Positions 4,476 through 30,739 of a DNA stretch of 64,000 nucleotides are shown piece by piece (within the stretch, counting starts at the first letter, position 1; each line of letters opens with the position of its first letter). The stretch lies in the sequence record PQ671645.1. One strand, 5' to 3'. Below the pieces are notes generated by a model. It was not told the DNA's origin, searched no databases, and saw nothing but the letters and a program-made list of their open reading frames with translations. The stretch comes from Escherichia phage DCP548. The position numbers and the translations under genes were made by a program.

Positions 4476-5918
4476 TTAAAATTTTAACTCATTGGCTAAG
4501 CTATCTAGGTCAGCACGTGTTGCTTTGGCTTTACCTACGCGTTCCGTACGATTCACCTCTGCCTGACGCATCTGAGCACCTGCGTTTTCATTTACTGTGT
4601 TAGGTGTGTTCATGCCTTCTTGCTCAATCTCAACCCATTTCTGATTGCCTTTACGTACACCCATCAGGAATTTATTCCACTTATTCTTATCACCATATCG
4701 TGATTTGATTTGTTTGATAAGTTGTTGTTCAGCTTGTGCAAGTTCTTCGGTTTCAATTACGGCCAACATGAAATCTGCCGTTGCTGGTAAACCTGCTGAT
4801 TCTGCAATATCGCTCATGTTCATATCCGAAGCATCCCATGCTGCACGTCCTACTTGAGCTGCAGTCCATAGAACTGTTTCAGATTCTACTGCTAATGCAC
4901 GAAGTTCTTCTGCGATAGCTTTAACTAATGTGTAACTATTTTCAGTGTAAACTCTGATGCGACAAGACCCACAAATACCTAAGTAATCAACCATGATTAC
5001 AGATGGCACAAAGTTCTTCTTGAGTTTCAATTCATTAAGCAATGCACGGAATGTATTAGCATTAGCTCCGCCAGTAGGATACTGTTTAACTACTAAACGT
5101 CCTAATGTGGATTTTGAACGCCATTTTTCCATCTTGGCTTTATATTCAGCATAAGATACGTTACCATCATCGATATCATCGAGCGATACGTCAAGCATAT
5201 TTGCATCTATACGCTTAGCACAAACTTCTTCAGCCATTTCCATGGAAATATAAAGAACATTATGTCCTGTTTGAAGATAATCTGCAGCAAGTGAACAAAG
5301 GCCTAAAGATTTACCAACGTTAACACCGGCCATTAAAACATTCAGTGTACCGGTTTCAGCACCACCTTTAGTGATTTTATTCAGAATGTTTAATTTGAAC
5401 GGGACCTTACGTGCTTTGTTCAGATAAGAAAGCCAGCGTGCTTCGTAGTCTTCCATCCAGTCGTGTCCAACATAACTATCAAACGAAATTGAAAGTGCTT
5501 GACGCATAATATCAGGAATAGCTCCTACGTCAGGCATTTTCTTGTTACGTTGTTCTGGAGGTAGTTCAGCATTAGACTGAATCTCAATGATTTTGGATGT
5601 AGCATTATACATCGCTTTTTGCTGGACATATTTCTCAGTTTCTTTAACCAACCATTCGTGGTCTTCAGGAGTATCAGCCAATTTTTCAATTAGGTCTGAA
5701 GTTCCTTTATATTCGGCTTCAGTTAAAGAACTGTTATCTAAAGCCACCTTTAATGCATTTATAGATGGCATTGCATTATATTCGTTAACGTGGCTCTTTA
5801 TAATTTTAAATACATTTTTTGCCGGTCCACGCTCAAAATACTCAGAATCCATATAAGGCCAGACCTTAGAAAAATAAGCCTGGTCATATACTAGATGAGA
5901 CAAAATAATTTCTACCAC
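4476..5918 (-). CDS. 41: replicative DNA helicase (DnaB-like) gp41
   Basis: 480 aa; Walker A GVNVGKS; size and synteny match T4 gp41. Confidence 0.93.
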   Translation of the reverse strand: MVEIILSHLVYDQAYFSKVWPYMDSEYFERGPAKNVFKIIKSHVNEYNAMPSINALKVALDNSSLTEAEYKGTSDLIEKLADTPEDHEWLVKETEKYVQQKAMYNATSKIIEIQSNAELPPEQRNKKMPDVGAIPDIMRQALSISFDSYVGHDWMEDYEARWLSYLNKARKVPFKLNILNKITKGGAETGTLNVLMAGVNVGKSLGLCSLAADYLQTGHNVLYISMEMAEEVCAKRIDANMLDVSLDDIDDGNVSYAEYKAKMEKWRSKSTLGRLVVKQYPTGGANANTFRALLNELKLKKNFVPSVIMVDYLGICGSCRIRVYTENSYTLVKAIAEELRALAVESETVLWTAAQVGRAAWDASDMNMSDIAESAGLPATADFMLAVIETEELAQAEQQLIKQIKSRYGDKNKWNKFLMGVRKGNQKWVEIEQEGMNTPNTVNENAGAQMRQAEVNRTERVGKAKATRADLDSLANELKF

Positions 5919-5927
5919 GATAACTCC

Positions 5928-6269
5928 TTAAAAGAATTTAAATTTTTTCTTGGTCCGTTCATTAAAAGCTTGTTGTACTTGCATTGTAACACATTTTTCA
6001 ACATGTGGTGCAAGTTCTGCTTTTCTGTCCTGGTCAAGAACTGCAAAGTCCATTACGATTTTACCATCAACCCAGTCTAGTTTTGTAATATAGACTATAT
6101 GATGAGAACCATCTTCAAGTGTAATCAGAATCTCTTGAATGACATTTTCCATTGCTGAACGGATAATTTTAAGAGATTCATTAAACACTCGTTCTTTGCG
6201 AATGTCTTCCCCTTCCGAAGAAGGGGATTCATCAACGATTTCTAGATTTAAATCATCGAGATTATTCAT
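5928..6269 (-). CDS. 40: gp40-like head vertex assembly chaperone
   Basis: ORF-track frame 5928..6413 trimmed to the ATG at 6269 (MNNLDDLN...), overlapping the uvsX stop by 8 nt; call is by synteny between uvsX and 41. Confidence 0.55.
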   Translation of the reverse strand: MNNLDDLNLEIVDESPSSEGEDIRKERVFNESLKIIRSAMENVIQEILITLEDGSHHIVYITKLDWVDGKIVMDFAVLDQDRKAELAPHVEKCVTMQVQQAFNERTKKKFKFF

Positions 6270-7533: not shown

Positions 7534-8082
7534 TTAACGAGCCCATTTGATAATTTCTGTAATCAAATTATTACGTTCGCTTGCATTAAATCCTATAACT
7601 TTGTTAGCACCATCATGATTAAGTAATTGATACGTTTGGATTTCGTTATGAATTGCAAACTCTTCAAAATATGAAATGACTGTATTAAAACCGAACGAAG
7701 ACAAAGTAATAAGGTCGTCTTCAAAACTTTCAGTCATTTCGTTACGTGTTAAAATAATTGTGAACACATCATGGTTTTGGCAAAGACGAACATAATCCTG
7801 TTCATAAACGTCAAGAACCGAGTCCGCATCTTGTCGAATACGTCCATAAACCCAGTTACTAATATATCCACGGTCTAACAGATAAATCTTAGTAGGGTCT
7901 AAATAATTCAACATCGTTTCGAAACAGCCAACTTCATTTCGAGACTTAACATCGAAACGTCCATCAACTGTTCGTTTAGGGAAATCAATCTTTACATATC
8001 TTTCACTAATTTCCATTATGTCATTAATGAAAGTTGTTTTACCAGCATTATCCGGGCCATCTACTAAAATAATTTTAGCCAT
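7534..8082 (-). CDS. P-loop kinase-like protein (dNMP/thymidylate-kinase-like fold)
   Basis: 182 aa; Walker A ILVDGPDNAGKTT and LLDRGYIS (DRY-like) motif; sits where T4 has beta-gt. Confidence 0.55.
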   Translation of the reverse strand: MAKIILVDGPDNAGKTTFINDIMEISERYVKIDFPKRTVDGRFDVKSRNEVGCFETMLNYLDPTKIYLLDRGYISNWVYGRIRQDADSVLDVYEQDYVRLCQNHDVFTIILTRNEMTESFEDDLITLSSFGFNTVISYFEEFAIHNEIQTYQLLNHDGANKVIGFNASERNNLITEIIKWAR

Positions 8083-8083
8083 T

Positions 8084-8983
8084 TTATTCCTCGATTACGA
8101 CATCTTCGTATTTAGGTATATTATACGGTGAAGAAATTAAAGCATTAAAGTAGATGAACTCACCAAGACCTGGATGGAATACTTCTTCAGGATTTTCGAA
8201 ATATTGAATCTTCGGACGTCCTTTAAGAATTTGATAGTACTCAGTTTTAGTTGGATTAAAAATTCGAATCAGCGCTTCTTCAGGATACTTATTTCTGTCG
8301 AAACTATTATTTGGATCAGTTATATAAAGCGGTTGACCTAATTGAATTGCGCATTCAACCACTTGTTCAAAACGATAGCATGGGTCACTAATTCGAAATG
8401 GATGAAAAATACCATCTAGATGAATAGGAGCCAAATCACCTACAAGACGCTGCATGACGGAAGGACGTATAACTTTCTGTGTTACGATAATCTTATTACC
8501 ATCCGCACCAGCGTTAACCAGCACTTCTTTTTGACGTTCATTCAACACAGTTGTTTGAAGTGAACGATTAACCGACAACATATCGGTTTTTAAGAATTCG
8601 TCAATATAAAAACGTGGTTTATTAGGGTCTGCGGTGATATTGAAATTGAATTCTACGTCAAAAGTGCCGTCATATCCAGTGATATCTGTGATTAGAAAAT
8701 CACAATCATAATAAGCAATTAATGAATCAACCACAAATTCATTTTCAGACCAGAAATATTTACGAGTGTTATACGCGTTATCTTTATACCATAATGGAAC
8801 AAACTTAAATTCCGGAAAAAGACGTTCACATTCTTTAATATCAGATGCATTACGTGGATATGTAATCACATCACCTGGATTAGCACGGTGCAAATGAAGT
8901 TGGAAGTTGCCATCCTTAAGGATAGCATACTGTCCAGTTTCATAAGACCGCATACTCAAGATAGGTACGCGGAAAATAGCCAT
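8084..8983 (-). CDS. hypothetical protein, candidate DNA sugar transferase (unsupported by motif)
   Basis: 299-aa ORF tightly coupled to gene 42 stop; no motif recognised; candidate role only by position in the glucosyltransferase slot. Confidence 0.45.
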   Translation of the reverse strand: MAIFRVPILSMRSYETGQYAILKDGNFQLHLHRANPGDVITYPRNASDIKECERLFPEFKFVPLWYKDNAYNTRKYFWSENEFVVDSLIAYYDCDFLITDITGYDGTFDVEFNFNITADPNKPRFYIDEFLKTDMLSVNRSLQTTVLNERQKEVLVNAGADGNKIIVTQKVIRPSVMQRLVGDLAPIHLDGIFHPFRISDPCYRFEQVVECAIQLGQPLYITDPNNSFDRNKYPEEALIRIFNPTKTEYYQILKGRPKIQYFENPEEVFHPGLGEFIYFNALISSPYNIPKYEDVVIEE

Positions 8984-9699
8984 TAGTCAAGGAATCCTTT
9001 AACATAATCAAAATCACGTTCAAACACATGGGCACTTACCATGGTATGAGTATAATCACCAACTTCTACACCGCATTCGTTAGCGATATAATGAAGTAAT
9101 TTTCCTTGGAGATAAAAATCCAACTGCATAACAACAGCACAGTTCTGAGAACGCATATGACAGTGGGTATAAAGCTTACCATCACGAATATAATAAGTCA
9201 CTGAGTCAGTACATGGATATTCAAGCGTTTCATCCGAATCAAGCAAAGCCTGATCTGAACTTTCAAGAATTTGAAACACAACTCTTCGTGAATTAGGTTT
9301 CTCTTTAAGTTCTTTGAGAAGAGCTGGTAACTGGGCCGCAATTCGTGGACCATAGAAAGTGTTGAAGTTCGCCGGCAAAACATCTGATTTTGGTTTAGAA
9401 ATAAATTTAGCGACATTAGGATACGCCTTAAACGCTTCTTCTGCGTTGGTACCACCAGAAATCATAAACTTCCAGAAATCTTCAGCATATTCATAAGAGA
9501 TGCGATTAATACGTGGGTCGGTCATTTTGAATGATGAAGGGGTATCAACAACTACTGTCATAGACCCAATTTCATTACAACGTCCAATACGAGAATCAGT
9601 TACGAATTCCGGGTTTTCTAAAATTTCACGATTGACAGCTTTAAATGCGGATTGAAAATCTGCGGCTTTAATATATTTCATTGTGTTATGTTTTCCCAT
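8983..9699 (-). CDS. 42: deoxycytidylate 5-hydroxymethyltransferase gp42 (thymidylate-synthase family)
   Basis: 238 aa; TS-family core RRVVFQ and catalytic Cys context YPCTDSVTYY; synteny. Confidence 0.8.
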   Translation of the reverse strand: MGKHNTMKYIKAADFQSAFKAVNREILENPEFVTDSRIGRCNEIGSMTVVVDTPSSFKMTDPRINRISYEYAEDFWKFMISGGTNAEEAFKAYPNVAKFISKPKSDVLPANFNTFYGPRIAAQLPALLKELKEKPNSRRVVFQILESSDQALLDSDETLEYPCTDSVTYYIRDGKLYTHCHMRSQNCAVVMQLDFYLQGKLLHYIANECGVEVGDYTHTMVSAHVFERDFDYVKGFLD

Positions 9700-9717
9700 G
9701 TTTACCTCAATACAGTT

Positions 9718-9741
9718 ATTATATACTCAATTCATAAAGCT
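9718..9741 (-). promoter_or_regulatory. middle-type promoter candidate upstream of gene 42
   Basis: Minus strand aAGCTTTA, 11 nt, TATAAT. Confidence 0.4.
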
Positions 9742-9880
9742 TATTTGAATTTCTTAGCGATGTTGATATAACGTAAAGCTTCAGCATCGATACTTCCAAG
9801 AACACTATGAAGAAATGCATCAGCGTAGTATTCTAGTTGAACAGGTTTCTTTAATCACTTTAGCCGCTTTAGTTTCAAAC

Positions 9881-9900
9881 AGGCCCATAAGGGCCTTTTT
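9881..9900 (+). terminator. terminator-like hairpin in plus-strand orientation (possibly bidirectional)
   Basis: AGGCCC-ATAA-GGGCCT followed by TTTTT on the plus strand, inside a 278-bp gap without a convincing ORF. Confidence 0.4.
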
Positions 9901-9977: not shown

Positions 9978-11138
9978 TCATTCTGGGTACCTCAAAGCGT
10001 CGTCAGAGTTAGTTATATCAATAATAGATATAGAATTTTCTGATAACCCATTTTTAGATAACTGACGTTTATAATATCTTTCACAATATGTACACGTCGT
10101 CCCGCAGATTTCATTAGCACAATCGAAATCTGGATGTTTGAACCACCTTTTTTCTAAAAAGCCATCTAACAAAGAGGTTTCAATATTTACCGTATGTGAA
10201 AACTCGGTCTCATTTTCAAGAGTGAAAATGGTCTCTAAAGGCTTCCACAATTCCAACAAATTACCTTCAAATTTTTCAGAAGCATAAGCTTCAAGAACTT
10301 TCAAAATGTAGTCTGTGCTACCTGTACGTCCTGAAACTTTGAATTGAGTGATACCAATATCATTATAAAGTTTCAAATCTTGAGGACGAACAAAACGAGT
10401 TCTCAACCAGTTAAATGGGTCTGTATCACGAGCTTTAATACAGTGCTGCATAGGATATCCGTTTAAGGATTTAGCATCATCAGCTGTAACATCAGTACTA
10501 TGGAAAATATAGCAAGAGTCACGATAGCTACAATGTGTTGTATACCCTTTACCAGCATTAGAACAGAACTCATTTACAAGAACTTCAAATATTATATTGT
10601 TCTTATTACAAAACTCTGCTGCACGCTTCAGGAAAGAAACTGAACGGTTCTTATGAATTCCACAGCAGACCTTTTTGATATTATATTGGTCGTGCAAGTA
10701 TTTGATTTGAGTTACAGCATCGACATGTAGAATTGTTGAAACTTCAATCTCAATGTCTTTATTGACTTCACGAACAATTTCCATAACAACAGGGTTAGCG
10801 ATAGTAATACGCCATACGCCTATTGACCAAAGATACTGAACATAATCCTGAATAGCTTTCTTCTTCCACTCAACTAGTTCTCTTTTTGAACCAGGATTTA
10901 TCGTGTTGAGTGTATAGTTAAAGCAAATACCTAATTCGTTACAACGTTTAACGTAATCTTCTAACATCTTTTTGTCAACGTCAGGAAGCCTAAAATCAGG
11001 TCTGGCTGCTACAAAAGCCATTTCTCTTGTAGAGCCGTATACTTCATTTATCAAGCTATTAGGATAAGTTTTATTGAGCTCTACGATTTTATCAAGAAGA
11101 GCTAAATCAAAATTCGTTCCGATTTTAAAGGTATTCAT
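9978..11138 (-). CDS. Cys-rich enzyme of unknown function (possible Fe-S protein)
   Basis: 386 aa; C-terminal FDCANEICGTTCTYC (C-x4-C-x3-C-x2-C) plus EFCSNAGKGYTTHCSYRDSC; first gene downstream of the sugar-pathway genes. Confidence 0.5.
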   Translation of the reverse strand: MNTFKIGTNFDLALLDKIVELNKTYPNSLINEVYGSTREMAFVAARPDFRLPDVDKKMLEDYVKRCNELGICFNYTLNTINPGSKRELVEWKKKAIQDYVQYLWSIGVWRITIANPVVMEIVREVNKDIEIEVSTILHVDAVTQIKYLHDQYNIKKVCCGIHKNRSVSFLKRAAEFCNKNNIIFEVLVNEFCSNAGKGYTTHCSYRDSCYIFHSTDVTADDAKSLNGYPMQHCIKARDTDPFNWLRTRFVRPQDLKLYNDIGITQFKVSGRTGSTDYILKVLEAYASEKFEGNLLELWKPLETIFTLENETEFSHTVNIETSLLDGFLEKRWFKHPDFDCANEICGTTCTYCERYYKRQLSKNGLSENSISIIDITNSDDALRYPE

Positions 11139-11192: not shown

Positions 11193-11594
11193 TTATAGAT
11201 TCGGTTTATATGATTTAAATGTTTCGAATTCGCCTTTATTCATAAGAGCTTTGAATTCGTCAGGACGCATAGCTTTGTCGTCGATAATCCAATCATATAC
11301 TGGTTTATGTGTTAGCAAATTATGGTACTTCAAGCCAATGTTTGCCAAGTTCTGAATCAGACTTGGGAGAATGTCAATTGCTATACGGCCAGGACCTACT
11401 GACTTCATACCGCGAGCAGTGTAAAGCGTTATTGTATGCCCTGCATCATACAGGGCATTAATGGCAGACACCATTTCGACGTCTGGTTTGAAGTTCACGT
11501 AATCACGATTGTTATTCCACTCTGTTATACAATCATCGACATCAAAACAAAGATTAAGCATGTTTTCTACACGGTGCATTAGATTCGTTCCCAT
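11193..11594 (-). CDS. HAD-superfamily phosphatase, KdsC-like
   Basis: 133 aa; motif I FDVDDCI, later TARG and K...DD motifs. Confidence 0.6.
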   Translation of the reverse strand: MGTNLMHRVENMLNLCFDVDDCITEWNNNRDYVNFKPDVEMVSAINALYDAGHTITLYTARGMKSVGPGRIAIDILPSLIQNLANIGLKYHNLLTHKPVYDWIIDDKAMRPDEFKALMNKGEFETFKSYKPNL

Positions 11595-28454: not shown

Positions 28455-28925
28455 TTAATCATGTTTCCACACCCCATCGGTATTTGACCAAAGTCGCTGA
28501 TTATCTGATCCTCGCCACAGTTTTTTGGTCGGAAGATTTTTCTCATACTTCCCATCAATAATAACATCAACATATTTAAGCATTTCTAGTTGTTTAATAT
28601 CTTCAAACTTATATCCTGTCCACAACCAAATGCTTTTATTGGGATAAAGATTTTTTACTGTTTGAGCAATGCAATGAACAACATCTCTGTTATCGGGATA
28701 GAGAGGGTCTCCTCCAGTTATAGTTAATCCTTCTATATAATCATTATTCAAACATTCAATTAATTGCTCTAGTGTTTCACCCGTGAATGGAATACCATTT
28801 CTAGCGTTCCATGTTGATTTATTATAACACCCTTCGCATTTATGCAAACAACCTGTAACGAAAAGAACGACCCTGCAACCAGGGCCATTCACAAAATCGC
28901 AAGGATAAAATCTATCATAATTCAT
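28455..28925 (-). CDS. nrdG: anaerobic ribonucleotide reductase activating protein NrdG (radical SAM)
   Basis: 156 aa; CDFVNGPGCR...GCLHKCEGCYN cysteine motifs. Confidence 0.9.
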   Translation of the reverse strand: MNYDRFYPCDFVNGPGCRVVLFVTGCLHKCEGCYNKSTWNARNGIPFTGETLEQLIECLNNDYIEGLTITGGDPLYPDNRDVVHCIAQTVKNLYPNKSIWLWTGYKFEDIKQLEMLKYVDVIIDGKYEKNLPTKKLWRGSDNQRLWSNTDGVWKHD

Positions 28926-30739
28926 TGGTGTTTAACCCTATGCATGATTTCTTTATTTTTGCCGAGATTAAATCCGCGTTCGTTAGGATTTCCAAGATAA
29001 CCGCATGTTCTTCTTATGGTGTTCATCTTTTTAGGGTCAGTTTCTCCACAAATAGAACAAACAAATCCGGTTTCAGTAGGAGTCATTTCATGAGTACTTC
29101 CACATGTAAAACATTTATCTACTGGCATATTAACACCAAAATAATCTAAATGTTGTGCAGCATAATCCCATACAGCCTCAAGACCTTTTAGGTTATTTTT
29201 CATATCAGGAAGTTCAACATAAGAAATATGTCCGCCAGTCGCAATGAAATGATATGGGGCTTCGCGAGAAATCTTTTCAAACGGAGTGATATTTTCTTCT
29301 ACTGAAACATGGAAACTATTAGTGTACCAGCCTTTATCAGTAACATCTTTTACACTTCCATATTTCTCGGTATCAAGTTTACAGAAGCGATAGCACAGGT
29401 TTTCAGCAGGAGTAGAATACAAGCTAAAAGCAAAACCGGTTCTTTCAGTCCACTGCTTAAGACGAGCATTCATTTTGGTCAAAATTTCCTGTCCAATATC
29501 ACGTCCGACAAGAATATTCAATTCGTGAATACCAATGTATCCTAAAGACACTGAACTTCTACCGTTTTTAAATAACTCAATTATATCGTCATCAGGTTTA
29601 AGACGAACCCCAAATGCACCTTCTTGGTAAAGAATAGGAGCAACTGTTGCTTTAACACCTTTTAAAGAACTAATTCTACACATCAAGGCTTCAAAACACA
29701 GATCCATTCGTTCATTAAATAGCTCATCAAATTTCTGTTCATTGAATTGTGTTCCAATATAAGAATCTAACGCAATACGAGGAAGATTCAGTGTTACAAC
29801 ACCAAGATTATTACGTCCATCAAGAATTTCATTTCCAGTCGAATCTTTCCATACACTCAAGAAACTACGACAACCCATTGGAGAAACAGGAATAGATGAA
29901 CCAGTGATAGCTTTATTGTTCTTAACTGAAATAATATCAGGATACATTCTTTTGCTTGCACACTCTAGAGCAAGCTGCTTAATATCATAGTTCGGGTCGT
30001 CTTTATAAAGATTGACACCCTCTTCAATGAACATAACAAGTTTAGGGAAAATAGGAGTTATTCCATCACGACCAAGGCCTTTAATGCGGTTTTTAAGAAT
30101 TGCTTTCTGAATAATTCGTTCAGTCCAGTCAGTTCCAGTACCAAATGTAATTGTTACAAAAGGCGTTTGACCGTTTGAGCTAAAAAGAGTATTTACTTCA
30201 TACTCATAAGCTTGAAATGCATCGTATACGTCTTTTTCTGTTTTAGATTGGGCGTAATTCAACGCATCAGCGATTTGCCATTTTTCTGCATCCTCAATAT
30301 GTTTTGCATAGGTGCGTTTAACATAAGGAGAAAGTACTTTATCTACATTAGCAAAAGTCGTTCCGCCGTACTGATGTGAAGCAACCTGTGCGGTAATTTG
30401 TGCCATAATTGCAGTAGCAACACCAATCGATTTAGGCGTTTCAATTTGAGCATTGCCTAATTTAAATCCATTCTCAAGCATCCCCTTTAAATCGACTAAA
30501 CAGCAATTAGTAAATGGAAGAGCAGGGGAATAATCAATATCATGGAAATGGATAATTCCGCTTTCATGTGCTTTCATAATAAAAGACGGGACCATATTTT
30601 TGGCAATGTGCTTAGACACAATACCAGCCATAAGGTCCCGTTGAGTTGGAAAAACACGAGAATCTTTATTAGCATTCTCGTTCAAAAGATCTTTATTAGT
30701 TTTATGAATTAATCCTTCAATTTCTTTTTCAATTTTCAT
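28922..30739 (-). CDS. nrdD: anaerobic ribonucleoside-triphosphate reductase NrdD
   Basis: 605 aa; C-terminal zinc site CFTCGS...CSICG and glycyl-radical motif RRTCGYLG; uninterrupted. Confidence 0.93.
   Translation of the reverse strand: MKIEKEIEGLIHKTNKDLLNENANKDSRVFPTQRDLMAGIVSKHIAKNMVPSFIMKAHESGIIHFHDIDYSPALPFTNCCLVDLKGMLENGFKLGNAQIETPKSIGVATAIMAQITAQVASHQYGGTTFANVDKVLSPYVKRTYAKHIEDAEKWQIADALNYAQSKTEKDVYDAFQAYEYEVNTLFSSNGQTPFVTITFGTGTDWTERIIQKAILKNRIKGLGRDGITPIFPKLVMFIEEGVNLYKDDPNYDIKQLALECASKRMYPDIISVKNNKAITGSSIPVSPMGCRSFLSVWKDSTGNEILDGRNNLGVVTLNLPRIALDSYIGTQFNEQKFDELFNERMDLCFEALMCRISSLKGVKATVAPILYQEGAFGVRLKPDDDIIELFKNGRSSVSLGYIGIHELNILVGRDIGQEILTKMNARLKQWTERTGFAFSLYSTPAENLCYRFCKLDTEKYGSVKDVTDKGWYTNSFHVSVEENITPFEKISREAPYHFIATGGHISYVELPDMKNNLKGLEAVWDYAAQHLDYFGVNMPVDKCFTCGSTHEMTPTETGFVCSICGETDPKKMNTIRRTCGYLGNPNERGFNLGKNKEIMHRVKHQ

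Follow-up and report, generated by a model that had tools for sequence, protein, structure and literature searches.

A divergent U32-family protein in the arabinosyl-5-hydroxycytosine cluster of an RB69-like Escherichia phage: a putative oxygen-independent cytosine hydroxylase

The 64,000-nucleotide stretch of Escherichia phage DCP548 analyzed here (PQ671645.1; the window in what follows) shares 98% identity with numerous RB69-like T-even phages (Mosigvirus) and carries a minus-strand gene cluster for arabinosyl-5-hydroxycytosine. RB69 DNA carries arabosylated 5-hydroxycytosine, and the 5-hydroxy-deoxycytidine monophosphate (5-hydroxy-dCMP) is made by gp48, which binds flavin, needs it reduced, and takes its oxygen atom from O2, as determined by 18O2 labelling (Lee et al., NAR 2026, PMC13326640). 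Between gp48 and gp51 in this cluster sits gp50, the ortholog of RB69p050 (99.5% protein identity), which Lee et al. list in Table 1 alone as a 'sugar or heterocycle reductase' with 5d88 as top structural match, with no experiment and no discussion in the text (PMC13326640). The question is what gp50 does beside a hydroxylase that depends on O2. In this study we describe its family membership, fold, conserved cysteines, gene context, and distribution, and we consider it rather probable that gp50 is an O2-independent, prephenate-dependent Fe-S hydroxylase which supplies 5-hydroxycytosine nucleotides when O2 is lacking, as the anaerobic counterpart of gp48.

To which family does the protein belong? 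Residues 94-286 of gp50 match Pfam Peptidase_U32 (PF01136) with 42.2 bits (cut-off 22.4), and the ortholog from phage Thanatos scores 42.8 bits against the same model. By Pfam, gp50 has the U32 domain alone, followed by a tail with four cysteines. Alignment of the gp50 family profile to TrhP, RlhA, and UbiU with hhalign gave a probability of 97.7% (E 9e-12), and the predicted fold is the U32 triosephosphate isomerase (TIM) barrel, as in Mk0906 (5d88). Single-sequence similarity is faint: BLASTP of gp50 against TrhP was not significant (E 0.6), a hidden Markov model (HMM) of the gp50 family scored 15 bits against TrhP as the best of the E. coli U32 proteins, followed by RlhA (9.5) and UbiU (6), the UbiU equivalog NCBIfam NF047963 was not reached (18.5 bits, cut-off 440), and the PDB, searched by sequence with gp50 itself and with its family profile, returned spurious matches only. 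Judged by these profile scores, gp50 belongs to the Peptidase_U32 superfamily and is not an ortholog of UbiU, TrhP, or RlhA. An exhaustive HMM search of 1.84 billion representatives recovered 1,716 relatives (1,156 at E<1e-10 and 495 at E<1e-30); gp50 is therefore part of a sizeable, well-separated U32 subfamily, comprising about 500-1,100 clusters at 50% identity.

The gene is read from the minus strand, the plus-strand reading being full of stops, and the protein of 386 amino acids contains two cysteine-rich segments:

9978..11138, minus strand: gp50 (RB69p050 ortholog), divergent U32-family protein, proposed O2-independent, prephenate-dependent cytosine C5 hydroxylase
10083..10121, minus strand: C-terminal four-cysteine motif C340-x4-C345-x3-C349-x2-C352, the subfamily hallmark, invariant in 121 sequences and kept in 70-74 of 77 remoter ones
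10440..10565, minus strand: mid-protein four-cysteine segment C192-x10-C203-x5-C209-x23-C233 (NEFC...THCSYRDSCY...GYPMQHC), in the region homologous to the [4Fe-4S] ligands of UbiU, TrhP, and RlhA

In total, gp50 has 13 cysteines (3.4% of residues). The C-terminal motif lies in the region ...PDFDCANEICGTTCTYCERYY, for which the predicted model has a predicted local distance difference test (pLDDT) score of about 96-97, while the mid-protein group comprises C158, C159, C177, C192, C203, C209, and C233. In an alignment of 121 sequences (gp50 and 120 collected relatives, 48-100% identity), C158, C192, C203, C209, C233, C340, C345, C349, and C352 are invariant and C177 is present in 118; as this invariance reaches down to 48% identity, the cysteine pattern is far from chance. 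An earlier note on this DNA, made from the letters alone, had described a 386-residue open reading frame (ORF) ending in C-x4-C-x3-C-x2-C, a second cysteine cluster mid-protein, and a place in the modification operon. The minus-strand translation and the alignment bear out the first two, with both sets of four cysteines invariant, and the position of gp50 between the phosphatase gp51 and the ThyA homolog gp48 agrees with the third; what the note made of these features is supported in part. Among 77 remoter full-length representatives of the subfamily, the best-conserved residues are C192 (76), C233 (77), and the four C-terminal cysteines, and C158 and C177 are not kept. At least four cysteines are found in the mid-protein segment of 66 of 78 remoter members, typically spaced C-x(n)-C-x5-C-x(~21)-C, and the spacing of the C-terminal motif drifts (C-x(3-4)-C-x(2-3)-C-x2-C), CX2CX2C occurring in about 27 of the 78.

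MAFFT aligns C192 of gp50 with UbiU C169 and TrhP C170, C209 with UbiU C176 and TrhP C177, and 'GYPMQHC233' with 'GYPTLC232' of UbiU, and hhalign pairs C203, C209, and C233 with TrhP C170, C177, and C197, respectively. E185, present in at least 90% of the family, aligns with the essential E162 of TrhP in MAFFT and is one residue off in hhalign. We infer that the mid-protein cysteines mark the canonical U32 cluster site. The C-terminal four are a candidate second, electron-relay [4Fe-4S] site, with a structural Zn site as the alternative.

Orthologs of gp50 have been deposited as 'peptidase', 'putative protease', 'collagenase-like protease', and 'U32 family peptidase', and these names, like the local CX3CX2C spacing that the earlier note had called radical-SAM-like, could be taken to mean that gp50 is a genuine U32 'collagenase-type' protease or a radical-SAM-like enzyme. 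Both are highly improbable. Of the profiles that the note had proposed for a check, Pfam U32 was matched above its gathering score, and neither Radical_SAM (PF04055) nor SPASM gave a match at E <= 1. The predicted fold is a U32 barrel, the motif has a fourth invariant cysteine, and its spacing is not conserved; the radical-SAM identity was rejected on these grounds. As to the protease, the characterised U32 proteins are Fe-S hydroxylases in which the conserved cysteines are cluster ligands (PMC6747719), and an operon for nucleotides and sugar nucleotides is no place for such an enzyme; this reading was likewise rejected.

What chemistry is then known from the family? UbiU and UbiV are needed for the O2-independent hydroxylations of ubiquinone synthesis and hold one [4Fe-4S] cluster each through four cysteines (C169, C176, C193, and C232 in UbiU), and the motif CX6CX15CX3/4C is common to most U32 groups (PMC6747719). 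Prephenate is the oxygen donor, and as mechanism a two-electron oxidation of the ring with delivery of hydroxide from decarboxylating prephenate has been proposed (PMC10990095). TrhP is needed for prephenate-dependent 5-hydroxyuridine (ho5U34) in tRNA, with the O2-dependent TrhO as backup, and RlhA for 5-hydroxycytidine (ho5C2501) in 23S rRNA, also dependent on prephenate; E162, C170, and C177 are essential in TrhP, as are the equivalent residues of RlhA, including E161 (PMC6599085). The known chemistry of U32 proteins is therefore O2-independent hydroxylation, including that of cytosine C5, the very reaction that gp48 carries out with O2.

Transferred to gp50, this chemistry would run as follows. 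The protein would hydroxylate C5 of cytosine, most likely on dCMP, giving 5-hydroxy-dCMP; prephenate would give the oxygen and be decarboxylated to phenylpyruvate, and one or two [4Fe-4S] clusters would take away the two electrons. The mid-protein cysteines would hold the cluster in the canonical U32 position and the C-terminal ones a second, relay cluster, which in UbiU/UbiV is supplied by the partner subunit. With such an enzyme the phage could still replace all its cytosine by arabosylated 5-hydroxycytosine in enterobacteria of anoxic niches where, since it destroys dCTP, it would otherwise have no C-type nucleotide. Paired O2-dependent and O2-independent enzymes have precedents in UbiIHF/UbiUV, TrhO/TrhP, and the phage's own NrdAB/NrdDG. 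Metal content, prephenate use, substrate, and anaerobic role are what we infer for gp50.

Genes for the supply of prephenate adjoin genes of this U32 subfamily repeatedly. In Serratia phage LC53 and in Entb_45 (Enterobacter) the start of an AroQ chorismate mutase gene overlaps the U32 stop codon (Pfam CM_2, 44.6 and 40.9 bits; cut-off 27). The cluster of Shewanella phage Thanatos-2 has undergone rearrangement; the U32 gene (TH2_068) and the chorismate mutase gene (TH2_069, CM_2 32.8 bits) have nevertheless moved as a pair and still overlap. These three are the phages in which the adjacency was inspected directly, and it was present in all three. A tblastn search with that chorismate mutase against all 50,697 phage records found it in 54 only, and every match listed comes from a T4-like phage of one of the U32-bearing host genera (Klebsiella, Serratia, Yersinia, Enterobacter, Proteus, Erwinia, Edwardsiella, Providencia, Morganella, Pectobacterium, Kosakonia, Escherichia EcS1, and Shewanella), with match coordinates close to those of the U32 and ThyA-homolog matches where these could be compared.

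The same neighbourhood recurs beyond the T4-like phages. On an 80-kb phage-like contig (L008), a gene for 3-deoxy-D-arabino-heptulosonate 7-phosphate (DAHP) synthase (9145-9891) follows directly after the U32 gene, scoring 237 bits with the DAHPS model and 63 with KDO8PS, and in a Gastranaerophilaceae genome (L022) a DAHP-synthase/chorismate-mutase fusion (4922-5956; 112.8 and 67.3 bits) ends 45 bp before it. Two Romboutsia genomes (L024 and L025) have a chorismate mutase gene overlapping the 3' end of the U32 gene (51.5 bits), and an Erysipelotrichales genome (L019) has one at a distance of 2.2 kb (67.8 bits). Genes of the shikimate pathway are unusual on phage-like elements. The chance of finding at least four such adjacencies in 28 distinct loci is about 2e-4 at a generous 1% per locus. 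Chorismate mutase and/or DAHP synthase genes thus adjoin a U32 subfamily gene in at least five independent lineages, and this adjacency, indirect but strong, is the best evidence for prephenate use by the subfamily, as in its characterised relatives.

The distribution of the gene points to oxygen. At a threshold of at least 60% identity, gp48-type genes are found in 342 phage records, of which 57 are Acinetobacter phages, and gp50 in 221 records, all with at least 80% identity and none of them Acinetobacter phages. Acinetobacter is a strict aerobe, and the hosts of the gp50-bearing phages are all facultative anaerobes. In the Lazarusvirus cluster the phosphatase gene abuts the ThyA homolog, exactly where the U32 and chorismate mutase genes would sit. 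Among cellular genomes, a relative occurs in 23 GTDB species genomes, every one of them from an anaerobic group; the groups include Lachnospiraceae, Oscillospiraceae, Romboutsia, Clostridium, Eubacterium, Ruminiclostridium, Cellulosilyticum, Phocaeicola, Tannerella, Gastranaerophilaceae, Desulfobacteraceae, and Woesearchaeota. About 17 kb from gp50, the window encodes the anaerobic ribonucleotide reductase and its activase:

28455..28925, minus strand: NrdG, activase of anaerobic ribonucleotide reductase (Fer4_12/Radical_SAM)
28922..30739, minus strand: NrdD, anaerobic ribonucleotide reductase (Pfam NRDD 568 bits, and Gly_radical)

The phage is therefore built to replicate without O2. As a control, the distribution of NrdD was only weakly informative, Acinetobacter not being among the ten commonest names. 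Between genera gp50 has 82% and 86% identity, as compared with 74% and 79% for the DNA polymerase, and the helicase and gp48 also lie below gp50; conservation beyond that of the polymerase indicates strong purifying selection on gp50.

Does gp50 act on a nucleotide, or on something else? Relatives with 44-58% identity come from large phage-like contigs, the longest of 466 kb, or from islands in anaerobe genomes. A dCMP deaminase gene lies beside U32 relatives, adjacent or overlapping, and their other neighbours encode thymidylate kinase, uracil-DNA glycosylase, dUTPase/DCD, NT5C, deoxynucleoside kinase, NUDIX proteins, a fusion of nucleoside monophosphate (NMP) kinase and methyltransferase, and DnaE-type polymerases. 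No ThyA- or gp48-like ORF was found in any of the 31 loci with U32 relatives. On an uncultured phage contig (L015, 6001-12179) the U32 gene is followed by an overlapping gene for a TET-associated glycosyltransferase (TAGT; 33.9 bits, cut-off 27.5), dUTPase/DCD, and UDP-galactopyranose mutase. Such a gene order is that of a DNA-modification cluster working by 'hydroxylate, then glycosylate', the U32 protein taking the place where an O2-dependent oxygenase is usual, and the locus is a candidate for producing a glycosylated hydroxypyrimidine new to DNA.

These neighbours bear on the idea that gp50 is an RNA hydroxylase like RlhA and TrhP, placing ho5C or ho5U in host or phage rRNA or tRNA and tuning translation during infection. 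Both characterised U32 pyrimidine hydroxylases do act on RNA (PMC6599085, PMC5727448), and prephenate also feeds the synthesis of 5-oxyacetyl uridine (cmo5U) via CmoA, which could explain a phage chorismate mutase. We nevertheless regard this idea as unlikely. As one U32 domain with a four-cysteine tail, gp50 is shorter than RlhA (653 amino acids) and TrhP (453), it has no significant pairwise similarity to TrhP, and its relatives adjoin genes for dCMP deaminase, dUTPase, deoxynucleoside kinase, and a DNA glycosyltransferase. Among phages, moreover, the gp50 gene occurs only in carriers of the 5-hydroxycytosine (5hoC) cluster, and inside that cluster; with U32 genes in only 221 records, the far more numerous T-even phages of the hydroxymethylcytosine type must be without one.

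Another substrate or position is likewise unlikely. Here gp50 would carry out an undetected tailoring of arabinose or base, or would hydroxylate cytosine in replicated DNA, as TET does, in place of dCMP. The order of U32 and TET-associated glycosyltransferase genes in L015 fits such an activity, TET working on DNA, and remote relatives in gene clusters for non-ribosomal peptide synthetases (NRPS; L036) indicate that the substrates of the family are diverse. RB69 DNA, so far as the account of Lee et al. goes, showed only mono- and di-arabosylated 5hoC (PMC13326640), however, and the phage dCTPase and dedicated kinases fit a route at the level of nucleotides, as do the mononucleotide enzymes next to the relatives (dCMP deaminase, NMP kinases, NT5C, and deoxynucleoside kinase).

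Some arrangements among the relatives deserve mention in their own right. A conserved module of GP88, a guanylate-kinase/methyltransferase fusion, a protein of ~265 amino acids of no known role, and U32 is found in a Phocaeicola faecalis isolate (L030, 2996-7089) and in L006, L007, and L020; it may carry out hydroxylation and O-methylation of a nucleotide, as its gene content suggests. In L006 the module is followed by genes for NT5C, a nicotinamide mononucleotide (NMN) transporter, deoxynucleoside kinase, a radical SAM/SPASM protein, a second, remoter U32 protein, and nucleoside deoxyribosyltransferase. Two phage-like contigs (L016, 3980-7086; L017, 3972-7101) have a triad of radical SAM/SPASM, a protein of ~328 amino acids without family, and U32 directly upstream of a DnaE-type polymerase gene, and a radical SAM/SPASM gene near U32 is also seen in L005 as well as L006. 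In Ruminiclostridium papyrosolvens C7, a cultured obligate anaerobe, a member of a remote branch (27-30% identity) lies between two NRPS modules (L036, 2817-10855). This branch (L032, L033, L034, L036, and L037) forms tandem duplicates in several Clostridia genomes, and the arrangement suggests anaerobic tailoring hydroxylases in natural-product pathways.

Within the phage cluster itself, gp50 has the following neighbours:

7534..8082, minus strand: gp45, nucleotide kinase (synteny; PMC13326640 Table 1)
8084..8983, minus strand: gp46:47, arabinosyltransferase (synteny; PMC13326640 Table 1)
8983..9699, minus strand: gp48 ortholog, ThyA-homolog 5-hydroxy-dCMP synthase, flavin- and O2-dependent (Pfam Thymidylat_synt 56.9 bits; PMC13326640)
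9820..9981, minus strand: gp49, truncated, 53 amino acids; its start overlaps the gp50 stop
11193..11594, minus strand: gp51 ortholog, HAD-like phosphatase of UDP-arabinose synthesis, AfhF-like (synteny with RB69 and Bas46; PMC13326640)
11579..13264, minus strand: gp52:53 ortholog, bifunctional arabinose-phosphate kinase/UDP-arabinose pyrophosphorylase, AfhE-like, a single intact ORF (Pfam NTP_transferase; PMC13326640)
13446..14081, minus strand: gp55 ortholog, arabinose-5-phosphate isomerase (Pfam SIS; annotations)

Is gp50 needed by the aerobic pathway that these genes encode? It could be a redox accessory, that is, an Fe-S electron carrier for the reduction of the flavin that gp48 binds loosely, or a sugar or heterocycle reductase, or it could have a role in the biosynthesis of UDP-arabinose. 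The reduced flavin required by gp48, the place of gp50 between gp48 and the sugar-activation genes, and the published labels all lean this way; besides the entry in Table 1 of Lee et al. (2026), the BASEL phage annotation calls the ortholog a 'putative enzyme involved in UDP-arabinose biosynthesis'. Both labels are computational only. According to He et al. as reported in PMC13326640, UDP-arabinose synthesis is accounted for by AfhE and AfhF, hydroxylation has been reconstituted in vitro, and gp50 goes unmentioned in either step; the reading of gp50 as a UDP-arabinose enzyme was accordingly rejected. Acinetobacter phage DLP3 makes the same base with a cluster without a gp50-type gene (PMC13326640), and Acinetobacter phages make tri-arabinosyl-5hoC without the gene. 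With the enzymes for 5-hydroxy-dCMP and UDP-arabinose accounted for without gp50, and with DLP3 lacking it, gp50 therefore seems to be accessory where the aerobic route is concerned. A redox accessory would also leave unexplained both the adjacency of chorismate mutase and DAHP synthase genes and the relatives in ThyA-free loci. We know of no U32 reductase, and taken together we think it improbable that gp50 serves the aerobic pathway in any of these ways.

Smaller features of the cluster concern gp49 and the gene models. In Mosigvirus the slot between gp48 and gp50 is held by the unrelated gp49 (79 amino acids in RB69 and Bas46), where most other genera have the chorismate mutase gene. The idea that gp49 is a degenerate chorismate mutase was tested and rejected, as gp49 gave no CM_2 signal and belongs to no detectable family. 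In the window it is cut from 79 to 53 amino acids by a 1-nt insertion in an A-run near 9848, as compared with RB69 and Bas46; the same allele occurs in six other phages (PHB12, SSE1, PNJ-6, 308Ecol101PP, 348Ecol098PP, and EP02SG) and is therefore a lineage variant and not a one-off error. Both gp46:47 (299 amino acids) and gp52:53 (561 amino acids) are intact here, and RB69 RefSeq splits each; the intact ORFs support Lee et al., who ascribed the gp46/gp47 and gp52/gp53 splits of RB69 to sequencing errors (PMC13326640). Serratia phage LC53 has an extra 'putative endonuclease' gene between its phosphatase and U32 genes (L003, 7352-7990), which is without counterpart in the window and probably encodes a homing endonuclease.

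Several observations weigh against reading gp50 as an O2-independent hydroxylase, and we set them out together. No chorismate mutase gene was found anywhere in the window or in the Mosigvirus slot, and prephenate would therefore have to be supplied by the host enzymes PheA/TyrA. The mid-protein spacing CX10CX5CX23C departs from the canonical CX6CX15CX3/4C of U32 proteins, and MAFFT and hhalign agree on a known ligand for C209 alone, while they place C192, C203, and C233 differently. About 40 Escherichia phages (e.g., Dhakavirus IME341) have a gp48-type gene without U32, and gp50 is therefore accessory and not obligatory for enteric hosts; the contrast between aerobic and anaerobic hosts also rests on few independent clades. 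Around gp50, FNR-like matches (97 vs. 84 +/- 9 expected) and promoter-like sites (22 vs. 26 expected) were both at chance level, and no FNR box and no dedicated promoter or terminator was meaningfully placed. Finally, hydroxylation in vitro is still to be demonstrated for any U32 protein (PMC10990095).

Taken as a whole, gp50 would be the first U32 hydroxylase to act on a free deoxynucleotide; it would give T4-like enterobacterial phages an O2-independent, prephenate-driven route to 5-hydroxycytosine, in most genera with a chorismate mutase of their own; it would have both Fe-S clusters in a single chain; and the subfamily would mark undiscovered hydroxypyrimidine DNA hypermodifications in obligate-anaerobe phages, for which the O2-dependent TET, JBP, and flavin hydroxylases are of no use. 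That all of these statements hold jointly is, in our estimate, evenly balanced. Our literature search, with He et al. (Nat Chem Biol 2026) and Mahler et al. (Cell Host Microbe 2025) outside it, found no paper linking a phage U32 protein with chorismate mutase or anaerobic hydroxylation. Lee et al. (July 2026), who cite these two papers, label gp50 in generic, computed terms only. The two other known routes of pyrimidine hydroxylation are tRNA pathways and were not connected to gp50 by Lee et al. (PMC13326640). The 5-hydroxycytosine/arabinose pathway of phage DNA was worked out only in 2025-2026, with a hydroxylase that needs O2. If our reading is right, sugar-coated, restriction-proof phage DNA could be made in the oxygen-free gut, which would explain the anoxic replication of phages that prey on gut enterobacteria and bears on phage therapy of intestinal E. 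coli and Klebsiella. The U32 hydroxylases are also an open problem of enzymology, prephenate having been named as organic oxygen donor in 2024, and gp50, if it is a small, soluble, single-subunit enzyme acting on a soluble nucleotide, would be ideally suited to reconstitution in vitro. The linkage of the subfamily to chorismate mutase, DAHP synthase, and glycosyltransferase genes would then allow new base modifications in the DNA of anaerobe phages to be spotted from genome sequence.

Of the known systems, UbiU/UbiV (YhbU/YhbV of E. coli) shares with gp50 the U32 domain and four cysteines in the homologous region, together with a small-molecule substrate, as proposed for gp50. It is the prephenate-dependent anaerobic twin of flavin/O2 hydroxylases (PMC6747719, PMC10990095), and the pairing of gp50 with gp48 is proposed to be of the same kind. 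The UbiU-UbiV functional unit has two Fe-S clusters on two subunits, whereas gp50 has two four-cysteine motifs on one polypeptide; the sequences are very remote, gp50 is without a UbiT-like partner, and its proposed substrate is a nucleotide and not a prenylphenol. TrhP (YegQ) and RlhA (YdcP) carry out the chemistry proposed for gp50, a prephenate-dependent, O2-independent hydroxylation of pyrimidine C5, but on RNA, and they are larger (453 and 653 vs. 386 amino acids) and have the canonical CX6CX15CX3C spacing. From UbiU, TrhP, and RlhA alike, gp50 differs in cysteine spacing, in its extra C-terminal motif, and in its presumed substrate. Mk0906 (5d88), the only solved U32 structure, has 11-14% identity to gp50, is 247 amino acids long, and is without a counterpart of the C-terminal four-cysteine region. 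RB69 gp48 and its HY126 homolog make 5-hydroxy-dCMP, the product proposed for gp50, and are encoded in the same operon with only gp49 or chorismate mutase between; unlike gp50, however, gp48 has the unrelated thymidylate synthase fold, takes its oxygen from O2, and is found in phages of strict aerobes that lack gp50. In the phage TET/JBP and TAGT systems a hydroxyl is made on the base and then glycosylated, as proposed for gp50, and in L015 the gp50 relative lies directly upstream of the TAGT gene; TET belongs to an unrelated enzyme family, needs O2, Fe(II), and 2-oxoglutarate, and oxidises 5-methylcytosine in DNA. For a T-even phage that encodes both an O2-dependent and an O2-independent version of one step, NrdAB and NrdDG of T4 are the precedent.

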